Below the pieces are notes generated by a model. It made no database searches. It was given only the letters and a program-made list of their open reading frames with translations, and had not been told where the DNA came from. DNA of 33,734 nucleotides from Eledone cirrhosa (lineage: Eukaryota), in contig CAXHJY010001278.1 of the NCBI GenBank assembly GCA_964016885.1, forward strand, positions 1 to 33,734, in the 5' to 3' direction. How positions within the stretch are numbered: the first letter of the stretch is position 1; each line of letters begins with the position of its first letter. A program made the position numbers and the translations under genes. Positions 218 to 29,490 of the stretch are shown piece after piece.

Positions 218-273
218 ATATAATATATAAAGTTAAATAAAAGTCAAATGATTAAAATTTAGCTTCGTTTATT

Positions 274-328
274 ACTGCTATATATATTTCAGTGACAGCC
301 ATCTTTGGCTGTGACCTCTTCAGGCAGT
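274..328 (-). ncRNA. Type I hammerhead ribozyme, inverted copy
   Basis: Reverse complement of 487-541 with intact core and fully paired acagcca/tggctgt distal stem II. Confidence 0.85.
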
Positions 329-486
329 TTGAATTAGTATGGTTTAGACAAGTACATATGTTGTTTAGGTGTATGATATTGTCAATACTCTGATATACAA
401 CCCAACAAGGAACTGGGCATATCAGAGTATTGACAATATCATACACCTAAACAACATATGTACTTGTCTATACCATACTAATTCAA

Positions 487-541
487 ACTGCCTGAAGAGG
501 TCACAGTCAAAGATGGCTGTCACTGAAATATATATAGCAGT
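487..541 (+). ncRNA. Type I hammerhead ribozyme (family 1 pLTR)
   Basis: Stem I actgc(487-491)/gcagt(537-541); core CTGAAGA 492-498; stem II ggtcacagtca-aaga-tggctgtcact; GAAA 525-528; palindromic stem III ATATATAT; predicted cleavage after A536. Confidence 0.85.
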
Positions 542-689
542 AATAAACGAAGCTAAATTTTAATCATTTGACTTTTATTTAACTTTATTTTACACTACTC
601 CGGAGTAACCAAACCAACCTGCGCACTTCGTTGAGTGCTCCAGCCTGCATACTGAGGTGTTGGTATACAACCAACATAAACTCAAAATC

Positions 690-6534
<5,845 letters not shown>

Positions 6535-7610
6535 GTTTTCTCTTTCTCTTAATTTCGAGTATATTTTTTTGACCGGCCACCTTCCTGGTGGCAAGGTTGT
6601 AAAAGAAAAGAAATTGTCATCCCTTGAATCGCAAGAATGTTTTGCATATTTTGAAGGTGCCAGCTATCGCAGCCATTTGTAGACTATGAATTAGGGAGCT
6701 GCGCTTTTTGTCCGCAAATCCAAGTTCGGTCATACTTTGGTCCAAGCGGGTTGGTATATAACCCGTAGCACCAATAATGATGGGTATGAAGCTAAAGGTG
6801 TATCTTGGATACTGGATTTGTAAGCTCCTCATCAATGGTCCGTAGATGTCCTCCTTCTCCTGTATTTTTCTGACAACGTTTACATCAAGTGGGCAGCTGA
6901 TCTCCACAACAGAACACGTTTTCAATGTGTGGTCCCAAACTACAATATCAGGCCGGTTGTGCTTTAATTTGGTGGCAGTTTTTATTTCAGGTTCCACCAG
7001 TATTCCTTAGTGCCATCTGTCTCAATATATTCTTCCTCGTTTGTTGTTAATTTTGTTTTCCGAAGTGCGTTCCAGATAGTTCTAGCTATCCCATCGTGTC
7101 TCATGGGGAGGTAGTAGCGAGATGACATTCTTTCGCAGCTGGCAACAATGTGGCTTACATCCTCGATCTTTGTTTTACATAGCCTACATTTATTGTCAGC
7201 TGCTGGCCCTCCTCTTTTGTGCAGCAGATATTTGGTAGGGAGTTCTTGTTCCTGTATTGCATAGAGATATCCCTCAAGGTGTGATGTCATAAACTTGTCG
7301 GAACTCCATGCCAGGCTTTTTGAGTGGTTTATCCCCTCTATGGTCTGTGTTTTACGCCTCAAGTATCCATGCACAACTTTCTCTGTAAATTGGTCAATTT
7401 TTTTTTCTTGTTTGAACATTGAATAGGATCTTCCGATTGCTCTGGGTGAGAGATTTATATCAGGCTTTATTCCATATCTCTCCTCCAGATCAGTCGCTAT
7501 TCTAATGATATTTCTTTTTTCATGCTCATAAACCTGAGCAAGATGGTCGCCAACCTTTTTCCTCTGTTGAAGGTGTTGCTTCAGTGTTACTATCCGGGTC
7601 TCATATGTTG
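6535..7610 (-). mobile_element. 5'-truncated R4/Dong-like non-LTR retrotransposon (C-terminal CCHC knuckle + restriction-like endonuclease), one frameshift near 6990, short 3' UTR
   Basis: ORFs 6982-7419 and 6617-6997: [56 protein letters not shown]; reading frame stays open upstream to ~7610. Confidence 0.88.
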
Positions 7611-8696: not shown

Positions 8697-9585
8697 CATC
8701 ATCATCATCACGCTTGCATGGGTTTGGACGGGGGTAGTCCCGTGTTCCACGCTTGCATGGGTTTGGACGGGGGTAGTCCCACTTGAGGCAAGAGTGATTG
8801 TCTTGCTCGCATAGGACTGTCTGGCAGGTTTTCTACAGTTGGATGCCCTTCCTAACACCAACCACATTTACAGTGTGTGTCTGGGAGGTTTTTACCGTGT
8901 TGCCTACACGGCCACATTACAGCGTGGACTGTGTGTTTTTTTGTCGTGACACCTACACGATCTCATTTGTTTCGGCCTGGATGGCGCGGCACCAACATAA
9001 CTTTACATAGAACGGGGTGGTGTGGATCGGGTGGGGGTGGTGGTGGTGGGACGGGGTGTATTTTGTTAGAGATGCCTACTGGCTGGAGTAGGTTTTACTA
9101 TATATTTAGGTAAGGCGGGTCTTCTCTGTTACTGAGTACCGCCAAAGGTCTCGGTCCAGTGACATTGTCTTGGAGAGGTGTAAGTGTGTGATGTCGGAGT
9201 TTATCAGCTCGTCCCAGGTTTTTCTAGGTCTGCCTATTCCGTGACTACCGTCTATCTTTATTGCCCTGCACTTTGTTATACAGCTATCGACTTTCATGCG
9301 CATCACGTGTCCATACCAACGTAGCCTTCTCTCGAGTAAACAACATCTGATCCCTCTTATCTCTAATTTTTTCCTTAGTCGTTTATGCTTTGCCGTTCAC
9401 GTATATTACTGTTACACATCCAGCGGAGCATGCAAGCTTCGTTCCTCTCTAGTCTGTGTATATCCTCTGCACACAATGCCCAGGTCTCGCTGCCATGCAG
9501 CATTGCTGTTCGTATGCAGGCATCGTACAACCTGCCTTTCATTTTTAGTGAGAACCCTTTAGCAGCTAATAGTGGTATAAGCTCT
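8695..9585 (-). mobile_element. 5'-truncated RTE LINE copy (subfamily A) with (GAT)n tail
   Basis: Near-identical reverse complement of ~17298-18183 ([11 protein letters not shown]...TEKTRLT + 3' UTR); small frameshift near 9377; duplicated 3' terminus. Confidence 0.93.
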
Positions 9586-9726: not shown

Positions 9727-9904
9727 TATATATATGTATATATATGTATGTATATATATATATGTATATATATGTATATGTATGTATGTATGTATATATA
9801 TATATGTATATATATGTATATGTATGTATGTATATATATATATGTATATATATGTATATGTATGTATGTATATATATATATATATGTATATATGTATATG
9901 TATG

Positions 9905-9953
<49 letters not shown>
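9586..9953. repeat. (TA)n/(TATG)n microsatellite
   Basis: Direct reading. Confidence 0.99.
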
Positions 9954-9959
<6 letters not shown>

Positions 9960-10222
9960 AATGAATAATAACAGGTAGACATCATAAAAAGGTAATTTAT
10001 TCCGTGTGCTTACAAATGTTTCCACTGTGGTTATACAGCCTAGTTATGCTATGTGTAAATTTACAACTATTTGCAAAACTCAAATATCAAATGCTGTGAC
10101 CACTGTATCATCAGAGGAATGCCAATCACCGGGATACAATAGAATACATTGATAAGAATCTCCATAACACACATAGCTCTACACGAAATCAAGGAATACG
10201 TAACTGGGGGACTAAAATACAA

Positions 10223-11065
10223 GTGCACACACGCAGTACCACCAGACATACTAATAATAGAAAATCACCACCAAATAAATCACGTTGTAGAAAGTATATC
10301 TGGTATAATCCTATTTTTAATGCCTCCATTTGTACAAAACTATCTCTTTCATTCTTTAAGTTAATCAACAAGCATTTCCCTAGTTCCCATAAATACAGTA
10401 AAATTCTGAACTCTAAAACTATTAGACTATCATACTCCATGGCACCAAACCTTGAAGCATACATAAAAAAACTTAACTTAAAGCAATTAAAGAAAACTAC
10501 AAAACAAAATATTTTGGTAACAGATGGGCAGAACGTAATATCTGCCTCCCAACCACTAAATGGGAGACGGGTATTACACAACCCACCTGTACCGCTATCA
10601 TAACCTATCCATGGTATACCCGCTACCCACAACAAAAACTGTTACTACCATCTACCTGAAAGATGTCCATTGAAGAATGAATGCCTAAAGTCCAACATTG
10701 TTTAGCAATGCACGGTTGAATCGAACGACCAGAAATGGTATTACATTGGGTCTACCACCACCTCGTTTAAATCTCGCTGGTACCGTCATCGATTCTCAAT
10801 TAAACATCCTGATCACCGTTTTGTGACCACGCTCGCCAACAAGACCTAGCAACTTCGTGAACGCAACCAACAGTTCACCTTAAAATGGGATATACGTTCC
10901 AGCGCAAGTGCATATCGGAGTGGATTGAAGTACTGCAGGTTATGTAACCTTGAACTCTTTTACATCTTAAAATCCAAAAATAAACTACTTAACGATAGAA
11001 TCGAACGATCATTATACTGCAACTACAAACTAAAAGCTAAATTCTCTCACTATAAAATAACTTAA
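10223..11065 (+). pseudogene. Decayed PLE C-terminal region (linker + GIY-YIG endonuclease)
   Basis: One reading frame from 10223 to TAA at 11063-11065, interrupted by in-frame TAA (10601) and two TAG codons; NIV*QCTV...YYIGST GIY-YIG-like signature. Confidence 0.8.
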
Positions 11066-11550
11066 CATTCGAACCTGTAACTATAACATCGCTTTCTAGC
11101 TAGCCACCTTCTCTTCCCCCACACTACAAGACAATACCCTGCCTATCACTATAAATGATAACTTTGTGCAATTCGCAGATTACTACTACAAACCCATAGT
11201 TCACCCACCCCATAGCTTTCGTCTGTCCCCTCTCTATCTCTCCCTCTATATCCATTCCACCCTCTCTCTCTCGCCTTTGGCCTACCTCCCTCTCTCTCCA
11301 CATCTATGAACCTGCCCTCTGGGGCAATAAATAATTCCAACCTTGACTATCAACGCATCGCTTAAGGTGGTCGCTCTAAGAGTAACCAGTATAATAAAAC
11401 CCCTACCATAACATTTTGATTAAGATATCTACAAACCACTCTCTCCTATTTCTCCAACCCCTGCATATCTTTCTCTCTCTCTTCCTTTTCTACTCTATCT
11501 TCTCCAATAACCTCACTTAAGGGTATTTACATTGTACATTTTAACCATTC

Positions 11551-11662
11551 TGCTCTGATGATACAGTGGTCACAGCATTTGATATTTGAGTTTTGCAAAT
11601 AGTTGTAAATTTACACATAGCATAACTAGGCTGTATAACCATCGTGGAAACATTTGTAAGCA
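11551..11662 (+). ncRNA. Type I hammerhead ribozyme with long stem II insert (Nematis-like pLTR)
   Basis: Stem I tgct/agca; CTGATGA 11555-11561; stem II tacagtggt...accatcgtg (imperfect) enclosing ~65 nt; GAAA 11647-11650; stem III ACATTTGT; GTA cleavage triplet ending at 11658. Confidence 0.7.
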
Positions 11663-11873
11663 CACGGAATAAATTACCTTTTTATGATGTCTACCTGTTA
11701 TTATTCATTCTTTATCTACACTCCGGAATACAGAAGGATCAGGAACTAAGTTTCTTCAACAATTCTTCCATAATTCGTTGAGTAACCCCTCACCGTACGT
11801 CAACCATATCCAGTGTAGTAATTAACCATTACTGCATCTAGGATAATCCTATACCTAATATATATATATATAT

Positions 11874-13816
11874 ATATTGTTATACTTTGGGGGGGGGGGG
11901 GTCATGTTGCCAATAAGAAACACACGCACCAGTTGCTTTCACTTCAATTTATTATAATAAATTTATAAATTTAGGAATTTATAAATTTCCGGTTGGTTGG
12001 TTCCACAACCAGGTGGTTGTTTATATATTGTCAAAGTTCTTTCGTCACACATTCTCTGACCTCTTTAGTGACTGGAGATTCTTTTCTTTGTTTTATATGC
12101 CTCTCCTTTGTTCTGTCTTACGCCATCTTATTTTTGTGTGTGTGTTGTGTGCTTAGTTTGTGCAAGTGTTACATCCGGGTGTCTGTGTGTTTATATTTAT
12201 TTATTTATTTGTTTATTTACATGTTACTGGTTGGTTGTTTGTTCTATGTGCATTTGTGTTTTCATTTTGTCCTTAATTGTAGGTTGTGATGTTGCTGTTC
12301 CACTCATGTTTTCTATTTAATTTTGGTTGTAATTCATTTATGTTTATTGCCTCTGTGATTTGTCTAAACATTGCGTCTTTTCTGTGTGTAGATTCTATTT
12401 TTATTACTATGTTCTCTAATTTACCCTTATGTTCTATTTTAGCATGTTGGTAGAGTACAGATGATTCTTTACTATCTTGAAGGTCTCGCCAGTGTTTATT
12501 TATCCGTTCCCCTATACTACGAGCTGTCTCACCTATGTACACTATATTTTTATCTCTACATTGTCCTTCAGTACATCTTATGCTATATACTACATTTCTA
12601 GTTTTACAGTTAATATGGGGATTTATTTACAGATTATACATTTCTTATCTATACTGGGAGGTCTTTGAAAAGAGTATAATTCACCTCTAGGGGTTGTCTC
12701 GATGAACATTACACTCTGGTATTTTTTGCTATCATACCATGAGTTTATTCTATTAGCCTTGTTCCTAGTTCTTTCTATTCTATTCCAAAATGTGCTCCTA
12801 TACAAGGGGCAGGTCCCATTTATGTCATTATTTACCATTTTTTCCTATTTGGTTCTGGCTCCTCTATACACTCTGATTTTATCTCTCTGATTGTAACCAG
12901 AGAACTGCATACGGTGGATGAAGTGTTGTATGTGTCTCTCTAGTTCTTCGGGGTTGCACATGCGGGACACGTTTTTCATCACCCGTACCAAATCCGCAAT
13001 CAGTATGTTGATTTTGGTATGGTCCGAAACAGCTGAGTTTCGGTGGATCAGATATTTGGAAGTCATGGGTTTGGCATAATGGGAATGGAGGATTTGTTTT
13101 TTGTTATTAATGGTATCTAACCAGAGCTCTGTGTCTAGTACAGGTAATCGATGGTTGGGGTGTTTGCTTGGGTAGTCTATAGTAACTCTAATACTCTGGT
13201 GGATGGAGTTAGCTATTTACTGGATGCTTTCCATTGTGTTTTTCTCTAATTCCTGACTGTTCTCTAGTGGGGGTGTTTTAACTACGATGTTTATATCATC
13301 GACGTAGCGGGAGTACATTATCAGGGTTAAGGGGTCTTCTAATTGTTCTTTGAGTTTAAGTTTAAGTCTACTGTCCCACCATACCATGAATAGGTGAGCT
13401 ATGTCGCCTGCAATGCTAACACCAATGGCTGCTCCCTCCTCTTGGGCATATGTTTTTCCATTAAATTTGAACATATGTTCCTTAAGGGTTAATTTTATGC
13501 TGGCCCCCACCGCATGTGCAATCATTTTCTTTAGTTCATCGTGGTTTTCGGGGGTCCGTATGGCTCTGGTCCTCCCGTTCCATCTATCTGTGTGGGTTTT
13601 CTTGGCCATTGAGGTAATGGTAGGTGGTCTGCCTCTTGCTGGTCTTGTAGGGCACAGGTTGCTAAGGTCATATGTGTCTAGATAATTATTACTATAGGTA
13701 AGTTTAAGTAGGAGTCCCAGCTCACTGGTATCAATCCCACGGAATTCAACATTGATATCGGTTTCAACACACGTTTTCAGATAAGGAATCTTGCTAAACA
13801 AATTCAGAAACGAAAT
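11874..13816 (-). mobile_element. 5'-truncated, decayed Penelope-like element (probably Hydra-like clade): RT + GIY-YIG, 3' UTR/pLTR 11874-12272, tail placed inverted at 13755-13816
   Basis: ORF pieces 13217-13756 (QEEGAAIG..AGDIAHLFMVWWD, YSRYVDD), 12845-13066, 12623-12838, 12273-12542 (NVVYSIRC..C...YIGETARS..ER..H..H, E..N); pLTR matches 27283-27530. Confidence 0.85.
12030..12073 (-). ncRNA. Degenerate hammerhead ribozyme (core CTAAAGA, likely inactive)
   Basis: Homologue of 27328-27372 with G5->A in the core, a stem II mismatch and a CTT triplet. Confidence 0.6.
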
Positions 13817-14975
13817 CATCATCATCATCATCATCATCATCGTTTAACGTCCCTGTTCCACGCTTGCATGGGTTTGGACGGGGGTTTTCCCACTTGAGGC
13901 AAGAGTGGTTGTCTTGCTCGCATAGGACTGTCTGGCGGGTTTTCTACAGCTGGATGCCCTTCCTAACACCAACCACATTTACAGTGTGGGACTGGGAGGT
14001 TTTTACCGTGTTGCCTACACGGTCACATTACAGCGTGGACTGTGTGTTTTTTTGTCGTGACACCTACAAGATCTCGTTTGTTTCGGCCTGGATGTTGTGG
14101 CACCAACATAACTTTGCATTGAAGGGGGCGGTGTGGATGGGGTGGGACGGGGGTGTATTTTGTTAGAGATGCCTACTGACTAGTAGGTTTTACTTTGTAT
14201 TTAGGTGAGGCGGGTCTTCTCTGTTACTGAGTACCGCCAAAGGTCTCGGTCCAGTGACATTGTCTTGGAGAGGTGTAAGTGTGTGAGGTCGGAATTTATC
14301 AGCTCGTCCCAGGTTTTCCTGGGTCTGCCTACTCCGTGGCTACCGTCTATCTTTATTGCCCTGCACTTTGTTATACAGCTGTTGTCTTTCATGCGCATCA
14401 CGTGACCATACCAACGTAGCCTTCTCTCGAGTAAACAACATCTGATCCCTCTTATTTCTAATTTTTTCCTTAGTTCGTTTATGCTTTGCCGTTCACGTAT
14501 ATTACTATTACACATCCAGCGGAGCATGCAAGCTTCGTTCCTCTCTAGTCTGCGTATATCCTCTGCACACAATGCCCAGGTCTCACTGCCATGCAACATT
14601 GCTGTTCGTGTGCAGGCATCATACAACCTGCCTTTCATTTTTAGGGAGAACCCTTTAGCGGCTAATAGTGGTATAAGCTCTCTGAACTTTTTCCATCCAG
14701 TTCTGACTCTAGTTACTGTACTTTCAGAGCATCCTCCCCCACTGCTGATTTTGTCACCCAGGTAACGGAAGCTGTCCACTATTTCTATAGAACCATCTGC
14801 GCAATTGAAAGAGTTAGTGTTTTGTGGGCACTTGCTGCAACTTATTGCACCAGAACACCGGCCACATGTAAAATCTGTGTTCTTAGTTAGCTTACCTGTG
14901 ATCCCACTACATCTTTTATGCACCCATACTTTGCATTTGGGACATAAAATGGAATTTCTACCTATGCCTTTCCTA
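13815..14975 (-). mobile_element. 5'-truncated RTE LINE copy (subfamily B) with (GAT)n tail
   Basis: Encodes [14 protein letters not shown]...TEKTRLT*, slightly diverged from 15397-17778; 3' UTR shares diagnostic bases with 26509-26658. Confidence 0.93.
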
Positions 14976-15268: not shown

Positions 15269-18183
15269 TACCTATATAACTATCTGTAACACTAACTTCA
15301 ACTAACTTCAAAAAACGTGACAATCACCTGATCACCTATAGATCCGGGGAACACACAAGCCAGGTAGATTATATCCTTACCAGAAGACGTGACAGAGTGT
15401 CTGTTGTTAACACTAAATCCCTCCCCCATGAAGAATGCACCTCCCAACATAGACTGATAATTAGCGACCTCATAGTCAGGACGAGACGTACTCGACAACA
15501 GAAGAGGACTATCCTCAGGAGGAAAATATGGAAGCTAAAGGACCCCACAGCCAGGAATAAATTTCAAAGCATATTACTTGATGCTTTCGACAGTAAGGAA
15601 GAACATTTAGAGTCGGACAATATAGAGGGAGAGTGGGAATTTCTGAAAGCAAACCTGCTGTTGGCGACAGACGAGGTCTGTGGCTGGAGCAGGCCTGTAG
15701 GCAGGAGGAGAGTAACATGGTGGTGGAACAGTAAGGTGGAGGGGTCAATTAAGGCCAAAAAGCAGGCTTGGAAAGTATGGCGGGATGGGGGAAGTAGAGA
15801 GGACTATCAAGTGGCCAGGAGGGAAGCTAGGAGACAAGTGTACTTAGCAAGAAGGGAAGCTGAGGAAAGAAAGTTCAAGCATGTTCTACAACGCGATGAC
15901 CAAAAACGTGAGGTGTTCAGGATTGCTAGGCAATGCGTCAAGGAAAACCGTGATATTGTCGGGGAGAAGTGTGTACTAAACGACGATGGCACACTTGCCA
16001 TCACCGACGCTGATAAGAAGGTAGCTTGGAAGTGTCACTATGAAAGGCTTCTAAATGAGGAGAATAATTGGGAGAAAGGCAGTCTCCCCCATATCGACCC
16101 AATAGAGGGACCAGCAGTGTTAGTCGAGGGGAGTATAATAAGTAAGGCAATCAAGGATATGAAGACTGGTAAGGCGGCTGGGCCTTCGGAAATAGTTGCT
16201 GAGATGCTGAAGGCATCTGGCACGGTGGGACACACCATGGTCACCCGCATAGTTAACCAAGTCGTACAGAATGGGGTTGTTCCGAAGGACTGGCATAGCA
16301 GCATCATCGTTAACTGTTATAAGGGTAAAGGAGACGCCCTAGATAGGAGTAACTATAGAGGCATTAAATTAATCGACCAGGTCATGAAGGTCACGGAAAG
16401 AGTAATAGCGCAACTAATCAGAGAGAGAATTGACCTAGATGAAATGCAGTTCGGGTTTGTGTCAGGCAAAAGTACCACAGACGCTCTTTTCATAGTACGA
16501 CAACTACAGGAGAAGTACCTAGCTAAAGGTAAACCCCTCTACTTAGCTTTTGTCGACTTGGAGAAAGCCTTCGACAGAGTCCCCCGCTCCATTATCTGGT
16601 GGGCTCTTAGAAAACTAGGCGTTGACGAATGGCTTGTGAGGGCTATACAAGCCATGTATAAAGAAACAGTCAGCAAGGTTAGAATTAACAACGAATATAG
16701 TGAAGAGTTTAGCGTAAAAGTCGGCGTCCATCAGGGCTCTGTTCTCAGTCCACTACTATTTATTATTGCCCTTCAGGCTATAACAGAGGAGTTCAAGACA
16801 GGCTGCCCATGGGAACTCCTATACGCAGACGACCTGACACTCATAGCGGAATCAATGGCCGAGCTAGAGAAGAAATTCCAAACATGGAAGCACGGCCTAG
16901 AGTCAAAAGGACTTAAAATTAACCTGGCTAAGACCAAAGTACTAGTTTGTAGGAAAGAAAACAAGGCGGCGGTCCCTTCTGGGAAATGGTCGTGCTCGGT
17001 GTGTAGGAAAGGCGTAGGTAGAAACTCCATTTTATGTCCTAAATGCAAAGTATGGGTGCATAAAAGATGTAGTGGGATCACAGGTAAGCTAACTAAGAAC
17101 ATAGATTTTACATGTGGCCGGTGCTCTGGTGCAATAAGTAGCAGCAAGTGCCCACAAACTACTAGCTCTTTCAATTGCGCAGAGGGTTCTATAGAAATAG
17201 TGGACAGCTTCCGTTACCTGGGCGATAAAATCAGCAGTGGGGGAGGGTGCTCTGAAAGTACTGTAGCTAGAGTCAGAACTGGTTGGAAAAAGTTCAGAGA
17301 GCTTATACCACTATTAGCTGCTAAAGGGTTCTCACTAAAAATGAAAGGCAGGTTGTACGATGCCTGCATACGAACAGCAATGCTGCATGGCAGTGAGACC
17401 TGGGCATTGTGTGCAGAGGATATACGCAGACTAGAGAGGAACGAAGCTTGCATGCTCCGCTGGATGTGTAACAGTAATATACGTGAACGGCAAAGCATAA
17501 ACGAACTAAGGAAAAAATTAGAGATAAGAGGGATCAGATGTTGTTTACTCGAGAGAAGGCTACGTTGGTATGGACACGTGATGCGCATGAAAGTCGATAG
17601 CTGTATAACAAAGTGCAGGGCAATAAAGATAGACGGTAGTCACGGAATAGGCAGACCTAGAAAAACCTGGGACGAGCTGATAAACTCCGACATCACACAC
17701 TTACACCTCTCCAAGACAATGTCACTGGACCGAGACCTTTGGCGGTACTCAGTAACAGAGAAGACTCGCCTTACCTAAATATATAGTAAAACCTACTCCA
17801 GCCAGTAGGCATCTCTAACAAAATACACCCCGTCCCACCACCCCCACCCCCACCCGATCCACACCACCCCGTTCTATGTAAAGTTATGTTGGTGCCGCGC
17901 CATCGAGGCCGAAACAAATGAGATCGTGTAGGTGTCACGACAAAAAAACACACAGTCCACGCTGTAATGTGGCCGTGTAGGCAACACGGTAAAAACCTCC
18001 CAGACCCACACTGTAAATGTGGTTGGTGTTAGGAAGGGCATCCAACTGTAGAAAACCTGCCAGACAGTCCTATGCGAGCAAGACAATCACTCTTGCCTCA
18101 AGTGGGACTACCCCCGTCCAAACCCATGCAAGCGTGGAACACGGACGTTAAACGTTGATGATGATGATGATGATGATGATGAT
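15269..18183 (+). mobile_element. RTE-clade LINE (subfamily A), truncated inside the APE endonuclease, with intact RT region, ~400-nt 3' UTR and (GAT)n tail
   Basis: End of APE domain ([24 protein letters not shown]...SQHRLII), WWWN, RT motifs, [16 protein letters not shown]; GAT repeat tail 18157-18183. Confidence 0.95.
15301..17778 (+). CDS. RTE LINE ORF (partial APE endonuclease, reverse transcriptase, embedded C4HC3 PHD-type finger)
   Basis: Open frame from 15301 (ORF track 15397-17778); [45 protein letters not shown]. Confidence 0.93.
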
Positions 18184-19382
<1,199 letters not shown>

Positions 19383-21925
19383 CAGCCTCTGGCAGGGAAG
19401 CAGTGGAATCACTTCTTGACTTCATGGATGATTTCTTCCTATCCCAACTGGTGCTCGAACCAACGAGGTGCCACAAAAACGTCCTAGACTTAATTTTCAG
19501 CAATCACACTGACAATATCCACAATATTGCAGTGGAGAAAACTCTACTCTCTGATCATGACATGGTTCTCTGTGATCTGAGATTCCACCGTCCAATATAC
19601 AAACCCAATGTCATCTCTCCTGTCCATCCGTTTGACGCTATGGATTTCCACAATGCAAACTGGGAAGCGATCAGTCATGATCTTGCACATGTCGACTGGT
19701 CCTTCACGCACACTCATACACCCACTAACATCAAAAAGTCCTGGCAGACATTTGTGGACACTGTTACAAACATATGTGCAAAACACACCCCATTAAGAAC
19801 TATAAACAAATCTAAGAGCAGAATCCCTAGAAATAGAAAAACGCTCATCAGAAAAATTAAGAGAACGAACAAAAAAATCAACAAGCTGAAATACTGTCAG
19901 CAGCAACACATCAACTTGACTGCCATTTCATCACTAGAGATTAAAAAACATAACCTCCAAAACAACATAATGTCCCTCATCAACAATCAGAGAAGAGCTG
20001 AAGAGGCCTGGGCCATTGAGAAGATCAAACTCAATCCCAAAGTGTTCTTTTCATTTGCAAAAAAACACAAAATCACTGGCTCTACTGTTGGCCCTCTAAT
20101 TGATGAAAATGGCACTCTTCAAGACAATGCTAAAACCATGGGTGAGATACTGCAGAAACAATACTGCTCTGTTTTCAGCAATCCTGATATGGCCGATCTG
20201 GGCTGTATCGGCGATGTTACTCCCCATTACACCTTATCGGACATAACGTTTGGCGCCCCTGATGTCTTAGCGGCAATAAAGGAAATCAAGCATAATTCAG
20301 CAGTAGGTCCCGATAGGTTCCCTGCTTGTGTCTTGAAGGCGTGTCAACACCAACTTGCATCTCCTCTTGCCAATCTGTGGCGGAACTCACTGGATGCTGG
20401 ATATGTGCCAGAAAACCTTCTATCCCAGTCTGTTGTCCCAGTTTTCAAAAAGGGAAACAAATCCCTTGCCGTGAATTACCGTCCAATCTCACTCACCTCT
20501 CATATCATTAAGGTATTTGAGAGAGTGGTGAGATCGCGAATGACCCACTTCCTTGAGAGTAACAATATGCTGAACTCCAACCAGCATGGATTCCGTAATG
20601 GAAGGGATTGCCTGACGCAGCTACTGCATCACTTTGATGACATTTTGAGAGCCTTGGGAGAGGGTTCCAACACTGATGTTATCTACCTTGATTTCAGCAA
20701 GGCCTTTGACAGGGTTGATCATAACATTCTACTGAGAAAGCTGTCCAATATTGGTGTCACTAGAAAGCTGCTGCAGTGGATCAAGAGCTTCCTGTCAAAT
20801 AGAACCCAACATGTTGTAGTTGAAGGAGTCAAATCCAGCCCAGCCAAAGTCAGTAGTGGGGTCCCACAAGGCACTGTGTTGGGCCCACTTCTCTTCATCA
20901 TCTATATTAATGACATCACTGACATCATCAAACACAGCAACATTAAAATTTTCGCTGATGATTCCAAGCTCCAAAAGGTCATCAATGGCGTGGATGACCG
21001 GATAAGCCTTCAGTCAGACCTACTGGCTGTTACCCAATGGGCGGAAAAGAACAACATGTTACTGAACGAAGACAAATTCGAACTGATCCACTTTGGAAAA
21101 GAGGATGCTCTGAAACTCCCGTACTCCCTTCCCTCCGGGGAAACTCTCGTGGCATCTAACAACATCAGAGACTTGGGAGTAACCGTGGACAGCAACATAA
21201 GCTGGGCCACGCATATAAGCAGCAAAGTTGACATGGCCCGCAGAATGTGTTCCTGGATCCTCAGAACCTTCCAGTCGAGAGATTCCCACACCATTATCCT
21301 TCTCTTCTCTACTTTTGCCCGACCACACCTTGAATACTGTTGTCCACTGTGGTCTCCCCACACGAAACAAAGTATCATGAAACTTGAAGCTTCTCAAAGG
21401 GCAATCACGAAAAAGATAGATGGCATGTCAGACCTTGACTACTGGGGTCGACTAGAAAACCTGAAACTTTACTCACTCCAACGTCGCCGTGAGCGTTATA
21501 TTATCTGCATGATGTGGAAAATGTTCCATCAACACTGCCCAAATGATGTTGGCATCGCCTTCAAGATACACCCAAGGCTTGGGCCCCGTGCTATCCGTCC
21601 CATTCAAAAATCTAAATCGCAACACATAACAACAATACGGCACAATTATTTCACCTCAATCGGCCCTGCTCTCTTCAACATCACACCAGGACACGTCAAA
21701 ACAGAAACTGACCACACAAAATTCAAGAAGTCTTTGGACAAATTCCTCCAAGTAATCCCGGACAAACCACCCACACCCGGATATGTCTCCGCAAACAGTA
21801 ATTCTCTTCTCGAATGGGCCATGGTGCCCAAATCCTGAATTGAAAGACTTCGCCAGGTGGTGCTATTAAGTTAGACATGGCCTGGGCCAATACTGGCCAA
21901 AACATTTCAAAGTTATTCAAAGTTA
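19383..21925 (+). mobile_element. 5'-truncated CR1-like LINE, copy 1
   Basis: ORF 19403-21838; short 3' UTR with ggcca-atac-tggcc hairpin and (TTCAAAGTTA)x2 tail. Confidence 0.92.
19403..21838 (+). CDS. CR1-like ORF2 (end of APE endonuclease + reverse transcriptase), N-terminally truncated
   Basis: [91 protein letters not shown]. Confidence 0.92.
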
Positions 21926-21989: not shown

Positions 21990-22582
21990 GTTTTGCGAGG
22001 TTTTTTATATGAAATCGTGTGTCGAAACAAATATTGTTATACTTGGGGAGGGTCATATTTGTGTAATATTGCCAGAATTAATAACAGAACACACTCACTG
22101 TTTGGTTGGTTTTCGCTTCTCACTTCTGTGTCTTTTATATCGGTAATCTAACTTACTCGGTCCTCAATGTTGCCATAAACATACACTAGTCACCCATCAC
22201 ACAGCAAACAAAATACTATACACACACGCAAACGCATGCGCAAAGAAGACAAAATAAAATAATCAAACAAGCAAATAAATAAATAAATATATAGACAGAC
22301 TGAATAAAAATGGCGTAGACATACAATACAACAGGAGGAAAAGATAGCACCACTGAAAGATTTATGCAACGAAAGATTTATGATAAACTATATATATGTG
22401 TTTGTGTCTATATTGTATCTGTATTATTTTTGACCGTCGTTCAGTCAATGGCAACATTGAGGACCGAGTAAGTTAGATTACCGATATAAAAGACACAGCG
22501 AGAAGCGAAAACCAACCAAACAGTGAGTGTGTTCTGTTATTAATTCTGGCAATATTACACAAATATGACCCTCCCCAAGTAT

Positions 22583-22590
<8 letters not shown>
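21990..22590. mobile_element. Non-coding PLE pLTR unit (relative of the 11874-13816 family) with ~145-bp inverted arms
   Basis: 22031-22176 is the reverse complement of 22448-22590; terminus atgaccctcccc-aagtataacaatat and tail tttcgacacacgatttca (minus, 21990-22030) match 27506-27572. Confidence 0.8.
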
Positions 22591-23134: not shown

Positions 23135-25665
23135 CAGCCTCTGGCAGGGAAGCAGTGGAATCACTTCTTGACTTCATGGATGATTTCTTCCTATCCCAAC
23201 TGGTGCTCGAACCAACGAGGTGCCACAAAAACGTCCTAGACTTAATTTTCAGCAATCACACTGACAATATCCACAATATTGCAGTGGAGAAAACTCTACT
23301 CTCTGATCATGACATGGTTCTCTGTGATCTGAGATTCCACCGTCCAATATACAAACCCAATGTCATCTCTCCTGTCCATCCGTTTGACGCTATGGATTTC
23401 CACAATGCAAACTGGGAAGCGATCAGTCATGATCTTGCACATGTCGACTGGTCCTTCACGCACACTCATACACCCACTAACATCAAAAAGTCCTGGCAGA
23501 CATTTGTGGACACTGTTACAAACATATGTGCAAAACACACCCCATTAAGAACTATAAACAAATCTAAGAGCAGAATCCCTAGAAATAGAAAAACGCTCAT
23601 CAGAAAAATTAAGAGAACGAACAAAAAAATCAACAAGCTGAAATACTGTCAGCAGCAACACATCAACTTGACTGCCATTTCATCACTAGAGATTAAAAAA
23701 CATAACCTCCAAAACAACATAATGTCCCTCATCAACAATCAGAGAAGAGCTGAAGAGGCCTGGGCCATTGAGAAGATCAAACTCAATCCCAAAGTGTTCT
23801 TTTCATTTGCAAAAAAACACAAAATCACTGGCTCTACTGTTGGCCCTCTAATTGATGAAAATGGCACTCTTCAAGACAATGCTAAAACCATGGGTGAGAT
23901 ACTGCAGAAACAATACTGCTCTGTTTTCAGCAATCCTGATATGGCCGATCTGGGCTGTATCGGCGATGTTACTCCCCATTACACCTTATCGGACATAACG
24001 TTTGGCGCCCCTGATGTCTTAGCGGCAATAAAGGAAATCAAGCATAATTCAGCAGTAGGTCCCGATAGGTTCCCTGCTTGTGTCTTGAAGGCGTGTCAAC
24101 ACCAACTTGCATCTCCTCTTGCCAATCTGTGGCGGAACTCACTGGATGCTGGATATGTGCCAGAAAACCTTCTATCCCAGTCTGTTGTCCCAGTTTTCAA
24201 AAAGGGAAACAAATCCCTTGCCGTGAATTACCGTCCAATCTCACTCACCTCTCATATCATTAAGGTATTTGAGAGAGTGGTGAGATCGCGAATGACCCAC
24301 TTCCTTGAGAGTAACAATATGCTGAACTCCAACCAGCATGGATTCCGTAATGGAAGGGATTGCCTGACGCAGCTACTGCATCACTTTGATGACATTTTGA
24401 GAGCCTTGGGAGAGGGTTCCAACACTGATGTTATCTACCTTGATTTCAGCAAGGCCTTTGACAGGGTTGATCATAACATTCTACTGAGAAAGCTGTCCAA
24501 TATTGGTGTCACTAGAAAGCTGCTGCAGTGGATCAAGAGCTTCCTGTCAAACAGAACCCAACATGTTGTAGTTGAGGGAGTCAAATCAAGCCCAGCCAAA
24601 GTCAGTAGTGGAGTCCCACAAGGCACTGTGTTGGGCCCACTTCTCTTCATCATCTATATTAATGACATCACTGACATCATCAAACACAGCAACATTAAAA
24701 TTTTCGCTGATGATTCCAAGCTCCAAAAGGTCATCAATGGCGTGGATGACCGGATAAGCCTTCAGTCAGACCTACTGGCTGTTACCCAATGGGCGGAAAA
24801 GAACAACATGTTACTGAACGAAGACAAATTCGAACTGATCCACTTTGGAAAAGAGGATGCTCTGAAACTCCCGTACTCCCTTCCCTCCGGGGAAACTCTC
24901 GTGGCATCTAACAACATCAGAGACTTGGGAGTAACCGTGGACAGCAACATAAGCTGGGCCACGCATATAAGCAGCAAAGTTGACATGGCCCGCAGAATGT
25001 GTTCCTGGATCCTCAGAACCTTCCAGTCGAGAGATTCCCACACCATTATCCTTCTCTTCTCTACTTTTGCCCGACCACACCTTGAATACTGTTGTCCACT
25101 GTGGTCTCCCCACACGAAACAAAGTATCATGAAACTTGAAGCTTCTCAAAGGGCAATCACGAAAAAGATAGATGGCATGTCAGACCTTGACTACTGGGGT
25201 CGACTAGAAAACCTGAAACTTTACTCACTCCAACGTCGCCGTGAGCGTTATATTATCTGCATGATGTGGAAAATGTTCCATCAACACTGCCCAAATGATG
25301 TTGGCATCGCCTTCAAGATACACCCAAGGCTTGGGCCCCGTGCTATCCGTCCCATTCAAAAATCTAAATCGCAACACATAACAACAATACGGCACAATTA
25401 TTTCACCTCAATCGGCCCTGCTCTCTTCAACATCACACCAGGACACGTCAAAACAGAAACTGACCACAAAATTCAAGAAGTCTTTGGACAAATTCCTCCA
25501 AGTAATCTCGGACAAGCCACCCACACCCGGATATGTCTCCGCAAACAGTAATTCTCTTCTCGAATGGGCCATGGTGCCCAAATCCTGAATTGAAAGACTT
25601 CGCCAGGTGGTGCTATTAAGTTAGACATGGCCTGGGTCAATACTGGCCAAAACATTTCAAAGTTA
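23135..25665 (+). mobile_element. 5'-truncated CR1-like LINE, copy 2 (tandem duplicate; 2-bp deletion near 25465 frameshifts the C-terminus)
   Basis: Same 5' junction atatcagcctctgg; ORF 23155-25551 identical in protein to copy 1 up to ...KTETDH. Confidence 0.92.
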
Positions 25666-25972: not shown

Positions 25973-26297
25973 ATCATCATTTCATTTTACGTCCACTTTT
26001 CCCTGCTTGCAAGGGTGGGATGGGAACTGATTCTGGCTTCATTTCTAAAGCGGGATGCCCTTCCTAACACCAACCTCATTTACAGTGAGTGCTGGGTGCT
26101 TTTTTGCCGTTGCACCTCCACGACCACTTTGCAGTGGAATGATAGGGACCCCATCTCATTTCTACAGTTGAGTAAACTGGAGCAATGTGAAATAAAGTGT
26201 CTTGCTCAAGGAAACAACACATCACCTGGTCTGAGAATTGAACTCACAACCTTTCGATTGCAAGGCCAATGCTCTAACCACTAAGCCATGTGCCTCC
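25973..26297 (-). mobile_element. Full-length tRNA-derived SINE with CORE-like body and RTE-derived 3' tail
   Basis: Pol III A box TGGCTTAGTGG (26278-26288), B box GAGTTCAATTC (26235-26245), ccttgagcaagacactt...ctgtagaaatg CORE-like segment, RTE-type ggttggtgttaggaagggcatcc, gatgat end. Confidence 0.88.
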
Positions 26298-26508
<211 letters not shown>

Positions 26509-26656
26509 TAGGAAGGGCATCCAACTGTAGAAAACCCGCCAGACAGTCCTATGCGAGCAAGACAACCACTCTTGCCTCAAGTGGGAAAACCCCCGTCCAA
26601 ACCCATGCAAGCGTGGAACACGGACGCTAAACCTGATGATGATGATGATGATGATG

Positions 26657-27282: not shown

Positions 27283-27589
27283 AGGATAGAAGAAAGGAAA
27301 GGCACAGAAACGAAGAAAGAAATCCCCAGTCACTGAAGAGGTCACAGAGTGTGTGACGAAAGAACTATGACTATATATATATAAACAACTATCTGGTTGT
27401 GGAACCAACCAACCAACCAGAAATTTATAAATTTGTAAATTTATAAATATATAATAAATTAAATTGAAGTGAAAGCAACTGGTGCGTGTGTTTCTTATTG
27501 GCAACATGACCCTCCCAAAGTATAACAATATCGGTTTCAACACACGATTTCAGATAAAGAATCTTGCTAAACAAATTCAGAAATGAAAT
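27283..27589 (+). mobile_element. Solo PLE pLTR + tail (same family as 11874-13816)
   Basis: 27283-27530 matches the reverse complement of ~11874-12115; 27528-27589 matches 13755-13816. Confidence 0.87.
27328..27372 (+). ncRNA. Minimal type I hammerhead ribozyme
   Basis: Stem I agtca/tgact; CTGAAGA 27333-27339; extra G; stem II gtcaca/tgtgac; GAAA 27358-27361; short stem III AGAACT; CTA triplet ending at 27367. Confidence 0.82.
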
Positions 27590-27828
27590 ATGTATGTATA
27601 TGTATATATCTATGTATATATATATGTATATATGTATATATATGTATATATATATGTATATATATGTATATATATGTATATATGTATATATATATGTATA
27701 TATATGTATATATATGTATATATGTATATATATGTATATATGTATATATATGTATATATATGTATATATATATGTGTATATATATATGTATATATATATG
27801 TGTATATATATATGTATATATATATATG

Positions 27829-28456: not shown

Positions 28457-28595
28457 TTAGAAAGTGAGGGTTTTTTTTACAAAATGAAAAATAACCGAGG
28501 TGTCCTACACGAGTGAAAGTATAAAGAAAAAGAGATGAAATCGAAAATGCAACTGGTGTCTTATTTTTAAAAAAAATATATATATTTATTTGGTT

Positions 28596-28633
28596 CCTTT
28601 ACCGGTTTCGCAGTTCTTCTGCTTTTCAAAAGG
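28596..28633 (-). ncRNA. Minimal type I hammerhead ribozyme with U3/A8 variant core
   Basis: Minus strand reads CCTT-TTGAAAA-GCAG-aagaa-CTGC-GAAA-CCGG-TA-AAGG: stems I and II paired, palindromic ACCGGT stem III, GTA triplet. Confidence 0.8.
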
Positions 28634-28850
28634 TGAGTTGAGATGGAGGGTCTGTGGTTTTTCTCACATCTGGTTGGTCTCTGAATGTTACTTATTTTAT
28701 ATGGAAAAATTGGCTCGAAATGCCAGGTTTTTCGAGAAGTAATTTGATTGGTTTGTCAATAATTATAATAAATTTCGCGCCAGTTCGCGTTACAATAGTT
28801 CTTCAAATAAGAGGGGGGAGGTTGTCACAGGTTGTTTTTTCATATATGAG

Positions 28851-29148
28851 TGTTTGAATTTCTTTTTACTTGAAAAAAGGGGCTCACGAAGGCTTTTTTT
28901 GGTTGGTTATAAATGAAATTATGGCTGTCACGTAAACAAGTTTTCATTAAATTTCCGTGCCCTTATTTGGAAATCCATTCTGTAGCCTTTTTAGAGAATT
29001 TTATAAGTGAAAGATAATGGTCAAGAGAAAGGGATGGGAGAATTGTTCTGGTTCAGTGAATATGGTTAGTTCGCTGGGGTGTCAGAATTCAGATTTTCTA
29101 TTGAATAAAGAAAGTAAAGATATGTATGTTTATTTGTGTGCTTGTGTG

Positions 29149-29179
<31 letters not shown>

Positions 29180-29490
29180 TTGAATTTCTTTACTTAAAAA
29201 AAAAGGTGGCTCATGAAGGCTCTTTTTAATAAACGTGATTTGATTGGTTATAAATGAAATTTGGTTGTCACGTGACCAAGTTTTCATTACATTTTTGCGC
29301 CCTTATTTGGAAATCTATTCTGTAGCCTTTATAGAGAATGTTATGACAATGGAAAGATAGTGGTCAAGAGAAATGGGATTGGGAGAATTGTTCTGGTTCA
29401 GTGAATATGGTTAGTTCGCTGGGGTGTCAGAGTTCAGATTTTCTATTAAAGTAAAGATATGTATGTTTATTTGTGTGCTTGTGTGTGTGT
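28851..29490. repeat. Diverged tandem duplication (~326-bp period) in the Neptune-like 3' UTR
   Basis: tgtttgaatttcttt...ggctca.gaaggc...gcccttatttggaaatc.attctgtagcc...ggttagttcgctggggtgtcaga occurs from 28851 and from 29177. Confidence 0.9.

Follow-up and report, generated by a model that had tools for sequence, protein, structure and literature searches.

EN+ Penelope-like elements (PLEs) insert as a composite unit that has been described in PMC8557442 and PMC3846280 (papers are cited here and below for the portions of their text that were available). The unit encodes a C-terminal GIY-YIG endonuclease (EN) and has a pLTR with the first ORF codons, an inverted 5'-truncated partner, a tail that stands on one end only and extends the ORF start, a (TA)n target with no visible target-site duplication and a hammerhead-like motif in the pLTR. 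These features recur at the locus studied here, the hammerhead-like motif in a putative minimal form. In Pen2a_Av 12 codons lie in the pLTR, and with the tail their number rises to 22 (PMC3846280). The origin of such inverted, one-side-tailed insertions is debated, self-priming, endonuclease resolution and two RT start sites having all been put forward. Frangieh et al. (2024) found that the anole PLE PAc cleaves and extends both target strands and that reverse transcription begins internally at two sites, which bound the tail; a dimer was predicted (PMC11167929). For L1, 66% of 1703 inversions carry deletions and 17% short duplications, the latter with a median of 22 bp (PMC2912911, bioRxiv 2024.08.27.596794), and L1 loci with very short non-inverted arms are known for which twin and dual priming are indistinguishable (PMC2837659).

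We analysed a 33,734-nt stretch of contig CAXHJY010001278.1 of Eledone cirrhosa (GCA_964016885.1), hereafter the window, an animal-type sequence of (AT)n microsatellites densely packed with retroelements. The insertion at 11874-13816 is a dead EN+ PLE with a C-terminal EN, lying in an (AT)n microsatellite (Table 1). Its inverted body comprises, in order, the RT from just after motif A, a linker, the GIY-YIG domain, a 3' region and the pLTR. The order RT to C-terminal GIY-YIG, by which EN+ PLEs are recognized, was found from the arrangement of the domains and from 66% identity to P0001, a predicted protein of Octopus vulgaris that is the nearest named protein to the RT fragment. The RT profile PF00078 gave a weak match under its gathering score (E 0.001), and PF01541 matched over its gathering score (E 1.1e-5). 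The endonuclease contains the CCHH residues as defined in PMC8557442 (VVYSIRCTEGQC...YIG...H...H), which separates the element from the Hydra clade, where CCHH is absent and the linker is CxCX5C; the C-terminal position of the EN separates it from the Naiad/Chlamys type with an N-terminal endonuclease. A CX2-5CxxC linker upstream of GIY-YIG, a Neptune/Nematis feature, is present in the CX4CX2C form, as seen in P0001 (CTENYCTVC) and in a loose end of the X4 contigs behind 12628 that reads CIDKNCVIC on translation by hand, the first linker cysteine being changed to serine in the studied copy. We call the copy dead because its RT has premature stops at 13217-13219 and near 12845, lacks ~32 codons near 12680 relative to P0001 and is frameshifted near 12628, and because many bases of the body differ from nearly all family reads.

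The pLTR of the body contains the ORF start, with an ATG at 11905-11903 (minus) and the peptide MT..PKYNN. It also carries a putative minimal hammerhead-like motif in which one core base is changed (CTAAAGA, against CTGAAGA in a solo copy of the same family at 27333-27361); minimal hammerhead forms are described in PMC4209133. The solo motif has the core CTGAAGA...GAAA with stems I and II. A search of Rfam returned no hammerhead match in 9900-14000 or 27284-27590, just weak unrelated matches.

Table 1. Features of the studied insertion, its flanks and related insertions in the window
Feature	Position	Strand	Details
Hammerhead-bearing palindrome (E)	230-689		overlap ~170 nt; ~100 nt extension on the right arm only
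Head-to-head insertion of another PLE family (A), left flank of the studied copy	9958-11858		short tail-less arm 9958-10121, minus
(AT)n target microsatellite, left	11858-11877	.	last ATAT (11874-11877) common to element end
Tail-less 5'-truncated PLE body, ending at the pLTR/tail border	11874/11878-13754	minus	~1.9 kb
pLTR stretch common to the solo copy	11874-12117	minus	84.6%
Minimal hammerhead-like motif in pLTR	12030-12075	minus	motif scan
GIY-YIG endonuclease, CCHH residues	12273-12626	minus	Pfam PF01541; out of frame with RT
RT core, thumb and linker	12645-13754	minus	66% identical to P0001 (Octopus vulgaris)
7-nt inverted repeat spanning the inner junction	13729-13735 / 13751-13757	plus	15-nt loop
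Tail-only arm	13755-13816	plus	62 nt; ATAT + 58 nt, codons 9-28 of the ORF N-terminus
(CAT)9 tail and 3' part of unrelated RTE-like retroelement, right flank	13817-14975	minus	label from ORF alone
Head-to-head insertion of the sister family (C)	21992-22590		arm 21992-22176, minus, with a ~43-nt tail; arm 22177-22590, plus, without tail
Solo 5'-truncated pLTR + tail, same family, in (AT)n	27285-27589	plus	reference for the contiguous state

The preliminary description had taken body and tail to be contiguous in an intact copy of the family, the solo copy. The contiguity was borne out: the pLTR end of the body aligns to 27531-27285 (84.6% over 254 columns, E 1e-74) and the tail arm to 27528-27589 (59/62 identical), so that the two parts tile the solo copy exactly, with no element base lost at the split, and the final base of the tail arm coincides with that of the solo copy. 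The solo copy itself is not intact, being a 305-nt 5'-truncated pLTR with its tail. Body-tail contiguity is nevertheless the native state of the family and the solo copy is representative, since the RAD reads of two individuals (X10 and X11) and the X4 contigs show body and tail contiguous; opposite-strand joints from body positions 11899-11901 to 13755 account for 482 reads in X10 and 368 in X11 (three rows summed in each). As in Pen2a_Av, the first codons of the ORF lie in the pLTR and are prolonged by the tail, and the element thus shares with EN+ PLEs a pLTR that overlaps the start of the ORF and may be followed by a 3' tail. The ATG of the solo copy is at 27506, and the same start peptide is found in the sister family C. 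The tail-encoded start peptide aligns weakly to residues 6-26 of P0002 (4/300 shuffles reach the score); there was no N-terminal match in seven of the other eight proteins and a weak one in P0008 (37/300 shuffles).

Three further points concern the reads and the tail. A search with the pattern 13755-13773 gave 0 matches in viral contigs, and its four matches in metagenome contigs, of only 19-22 nt and with no other element sequence, were set aside as chance. An EcoRI site at 13742 that had seemed of use with the RAD reads was set aside, as 296 of 303 X10 reads differ at 13745 and the site is nearly private to the studied copy. Ratios of tail to pLTR read depth were left out, depth being no measure of copy number.

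At the inner junction the family RT does not contain an antisense tail, so that on this count the split stands. Beyond 13754, twelve X4 contigs depart from the sequence of the window, their consensus beginning CTCTC (agreement 0.98). This continuation is in frame and agrees with P0001: translated by hand on the minus strand, it reads EKCVEMISES followed by NVEF as in the window, where P0001 has EKCVEMINESQVEF. A protein alignment that extended into the tail (CVE) was discarded as a chance likeness of the antisense tail to native KCVEM, the DNA of the reads being different. The proposal that the tail is joined to the RT coding sequence through a shared ATAT did not hold: native RT has CTCT at 13755-13758, and the ATAT belongs to the tail arm. 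Because the family RT continues with CTCT, and the native pLTR precedes the border with ACA, the join 13754/13755 is blunt, with 0 nt of native microhomology unless the template of the studied copy differed from the family. It had further been stated that only the ATAT is duplicated and nothing is lost. The second part stands, and the duplication amounts to 0-4 nt, as the left ATAT may belong to the target. ATAT 11874-11877 is likely primer microhomology; if it is derived from the target, the RNA was divided at a single bond with no base lost or doubled, and otherwise 4 nt were doubled. No target-site duplication is discernible between the flanks, (AT)n on the left and (CAT)n on the right. No read spanning 13754/13755 was found among the rows listed (15 of 298 for joints, 12 of 249 for between-letter positions, 24 of 2711 for loose ends), nor did any listed piece cross the whole insertion.

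The junction is crossed by an inverted repeat of 7 nt, the second half of which takes 4 nt from the end of the body and 3 nt from the start of the tail arm. Snap-back end joining, known from DNA break repair, leaves an apparently blunt join with a short inverted repeat across it. This snap-back type of synthesis-dependent microhomology-mediated end joining is treated in PMC2943611 and PMC5728401. In a simulation set up after the motif had been noticed, and hence post hoc, a repeat of this length was reached in 15 of 1455 simulated joins in the same class and in 46 of 1455 when any of the four classes was allowed. The junction may therefore owe its position to end-joining rather than to polymerase collision; if so, the tail cDNA was possibly longer, and the tail-only arm is uninformative on collision on one RNA.

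Three other head-to-head insertions in the window (A, C and E in Table 1) can be compared with the studied copy (B); C is of the sister family, and A and E are of other families. In C the arms overlap by ~143 nt and the tail-less arm ends at the same AAGTATAACAAT/(AT)n site as in B, which is why we conclude that the split of B coincides with the fixed pLTR/tail terminus of the family. Minimum free-energy folds around this border gave no stem-loop common to the solo copy and family C. The long arm of A has a ~147 nt extension and the overlap is ~166-170 nt, and palindrome E has a short loop. Thus the overlaps in A, C and E are 143-170 nt, and B is a zero-overlap case with a tailed arm that lacks the pLTR. 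All four tail-less arms end at 3-4 nt of AT microhomology with the (AT)n target. The tail is present on exactly one arm in all four same-family head-to-head insertions in the window, a count that leaves out the pair at 32849/32850, whose arms are unlike; with free arm starts the chance of this would be 1 in 16. The tail of family C ends ~17-19 nt earlier than that of the studied family.

The arms of A share one rare base (10056 and 11613): at 11613 another base is found in 588 of the 602 reads of X10 and in 485 of the 496 reads of X11. Each arm also carries private differences, and the base at 10056/11613 is absent in ~98% of family reads. The A arms thus come from one template or one source locus, or were homogenized later. 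We regard the two arms of such insertions as coupled, because of the one-sided tails (4/4) together with the rare base common to both A arms. Such coupling would follow from one RNA bound by a dimer, from a single source locus whose sites are used asymmetrically, or from fold-back of one cDNA that is nicked at the border.

Near-zero overlap is not unique to the studied copy. At another locus of the family, seen in reads of both RAD individuals (82 + 109 reads), the tailed arm starts 18 nt upstream of the ATAT; the joint runs head-to-head from 11918 to 13755 and shows a short hairpin loop and 2 nt (GA) of microhomology. In the X4 contigs, a joint at 11917 probably represents a tailed arm starting 7 nt upstream of the ATAT, because a match read on the opposite strand would have been longer. 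Three opposite-strand joints present in both RAD runs (11937-12266, 11997-12913 and 12244-12573) and two X4 joints (11933 and 11922) may be other inverted junctions, and were left uncounted as their orientation is not given. Near-zero overlaps therefore occur as part of a spread, in a read-joint table that by construction favours short ones. If truncation falls over 200-350 nt, a rough estimate of the chance that a tailed arm starts in the 5-nt border window is 1-3%.

The window also holds a number of other elements. RTE-like LINE copies with (GAT)n tails are found in both orientations (8737-9583, 13817-14975, 15280-18178 and 26512-26653); the copies at 8740-9583 and 17300-18144 are 99.2% alike, and related short 3' pieces are at 1-168 and 26023-26134. 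Fragments of another non-LTR element, with the restriction-like endonuclease motif RPDIVV and a CCHC-like motif, lie at 6617-7600 (minus). A 2.5-kb direct duplicate (19385-21911 and 23137-25661, 99.6%), which contains a LINE RT fragment and an upstream piece and flanks C, is either a recent tandem duplication or an assembly duplicate. The PLE in 28460-33042 has a 770-aa frame for RT and GIY-YIG at 29959-32271 (minus), and its long 3' region contains tandem duplications of ~320 nt (84%) and ~100 nt (83%) at 28847-29707. It abuts an inverted tail-less pLTR (32850-33042) without an (AT)n spacer; this pLTR has no match in the 3' region of the PLE, and is either an inverted arm that stems from another family, which would mean two RNAs in one event, or an insertion made later at the edge. 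The same hammerhead-bearing pLTR is found at 397-589, with one mismatch in 193 and exactly the same 5' starting point (ACAACCCAAC). This shared start lies ~90 nt upstream of the core of the hammerhead and suggests that the 5' boundary is fixed or that both arms derive from one short source element.

How did the studied insertion arise? Its outer ends are the two fixed termini of the family, facing outward, and two 5'-truncated ends meet head-to-head. Read 5' to 3', both strands leave the target as sequence antisense to the RNA; the top strand begins at the border and the bottom strand at the end of the tail. We think it probable, though well short of certain, that RT was primed from both cut target strands and that the cDNA ends were then joined by repair. 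By analogy with PMC11167929, the GIY-YIG endonuclease would cut both strands of AT-rich DNA, and RT would start at the two sites bounding the tail. A top-strand primer ending in ATAT could pair with AUAU at the border and copy 1877 nt back into the RT region, and a bottom-strand primer would copy the tail. The 3' end of the long cDNA might then snap back on a 4-nt inverted repeat, gain ATA and pair with the ATAT of the tail cDNA, a step for which the statistics are weak. A longer tail cDNA would be trimmed at the ATAT, and trimming alone would give a tail-only arm.

Several observations argue for priming from both target ends. The AT microhomology at all four tail-less ends suits a target-derived primer, the tail arm ends where the solo copy ends, the border is fixed in the sister family C and the tail is one-sided in 4/4 same-family pairs. 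To these can be added that PAc of the anole cleaves and extends both strands and starts at two tail-bounding sites (PMC11167929), and, in the window, the 7-nt snap-back repeat and the rare base shared by the A arms. Against it, the overlaps of 143-170 nt (3/4) need strand displacement or two templates and are unlike L1 twin priming, the in vitro work comes from a different clade and Frangieh et al. saw no start-site difference between the strands, which by itself would give no one-sided tails. The snap-back motif was seen before it was tested, and the want of a junction-spanning read among the rows listed also counts against this reading, as does the fact that fold-back of a single cDNA would account just as well for tails on one side, for rare alleles shared by the arms and for hairpins at the junction.

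The preliminary description had named two primers acting on a single RNA. The polarity expected of two primers is present; a single RNA is possible, two RNAs, or one cDNA folded back and nicked at the border, giving the same sequence. Priming from both ends on one RNA (twin priming, with or without collision) is accordingly a tentative proposal, and to the same tentative degree we entertain two RNAs or tandem units (dual priming). A narrower form, in which a protein dimer sitting on one RNA across the tail primes both target strands at the tail edges, is programmed twin priming, and this we consider rather doubtful. If it were true, the one-sided tail would be obligatory, the tail-only arm would reflect distal RT stopping at the proximal cDNA instead of displacing it, and a genome-wide spike of tailed arms starting exactly at the border would be expected.

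The strongest competitor, which we hold to be somewhat unlikely, is that a single cDNA running from the tail end into the RT region folds back and self-primes its second strand at the border, after which a nick by the endonuclease at the pLTR/tail border frees a 5' end of the cDNA, and this is joined to the second end of the target. Self-priming has been proposed for PLE palindromes (PMC3846280), the tail has been ascribed to endonuclease-mediated resolution (PMC8557442) and the D. virilis endonuclease requires the tail for recognition (cited in PMC11167929). Fold-back with a nick yields an inverted body, a one-sided tail (4/4) and any overlap from 0 up without displacement, and the rare allele common to both A arms and the short loop of palindrome E agree with it. 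However, RT in vitro starts directly at both tail boundaries from the cleaved target, which makes a later nick unneeded (PMC11167929), and in the studied copy the fold-back, over a loop of 1.9 kb, would have to hit precisely the site that is nicked later. The AT microhomology at the four tail-less ends suits priming, although joining could use it as well.

It is far less probable that a 5'-truncated tailed copy was inserted first and the stretch from (AT)n to the border was inverted later between self-complementary ATATs. ATAT being its own reverse complement, this would give exactly the observed sequence, including an ATAT absent from native RT; yet the inner break must strike the fixed terminus, one of 13 ATATs (12 in the body and the border), and the outer break must fall in the last (AT)n repeat. 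Head-to-head insertions ending at the border are common in the window anyway, and the snap-back repeat would stay unexplained. Two abutting insertions of one family, the first a 62-nt copy of the tail alone and the second a copy without tail, are more improbable again: PLEs are heavily clustered in (AT)n and the unlike pLTR at 32849/32850 abuts a PLE without a spacer, but there is no (AT)n remnant between the arms and the parts tile the family sequence exactly. An assembly chimera between two family copies is the least credible, for although the region is microsatellite-rich and the listed rows include no spanning read, a collapse would join in shared sequence and the junction has 0 nt of native homology, the ends are family-specific termini and the window holds three further cases of the architecture.

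Priming from both target ends is thus the reading that we carry forward, and the tail-only arm is the limiting case in which the models differ in expected frequency. Two primers on one RNA would be favoured if arm starts were in excess exactly at the border, and two templates or fold-back if the starts were spread smoothly. The studied family has very many copies, and one locus decides nothing on mechanism; the value of the insertion lies in the genome-wide count of arm starts that it prompts.

Compared with L1 twin priming (PMC2912911, bioRxiv 2024.08.27.596794), the studied insertion likewise has a short sense 3' arm and an inverted upstream part, with cDNA ends that in both systems are joined with or without microhomology. 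The L1-type polarity, a sense arm and an inverted arm that adjoin in the RNA, is present; the native microhomology that is frequent but not obligatory at L1 inversion junctions is absent at 13754/13755. In L1 the second primer lands by chance complementarity, whereas the second site of the PLE is a fixed terminus, and overlaps are long in 3/4 cases. Snap-back end joining is known for DNA break repair and not for PLE junctions, and the case here is a single one (1-3% by simulation).

The likeness to PAc (Poseidon, Anolis carolinensis) lies in two tail-bounding start sites in the 5' end of the ORF, an AT-rich target and the use of both strands, although PAc belongs to a different clade from the studied family. 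In the available text of PMC11167929 the two start sites are nowhere tied to inverted insertions, the sole use of 'inverted' being for a blocking dT. A literature search of the papers accessible outside older subscription journals found, in the text available, no PLE paper invoking twin or dual priming, and the available portions of PMC13282606 and bioRxiv 2026.07.22.740005 hold nothing further on the insertion shape. The link between two-site RT initiation and head-to-head PLE insertions is thus one that we infer here. With respect to the canonical EN+ PLE unit, the tail of the studied family is longer (58-62 nt, against a reported 30-40 bp; PMC8557442, PMC3846280), and the extensions at 11712-11858 (~147 nt) and 588-689 (~100 nt) also exceed that range. 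The partner is shrunk to the tail, with an overlap of 0-4 nt instead of most of the pLTR, and a tail-only arm was not found described in the available text of the same two papers. The studied insertion is thus a clean instance of a type of insertion that is already known, taken to the limit of zero overlap.
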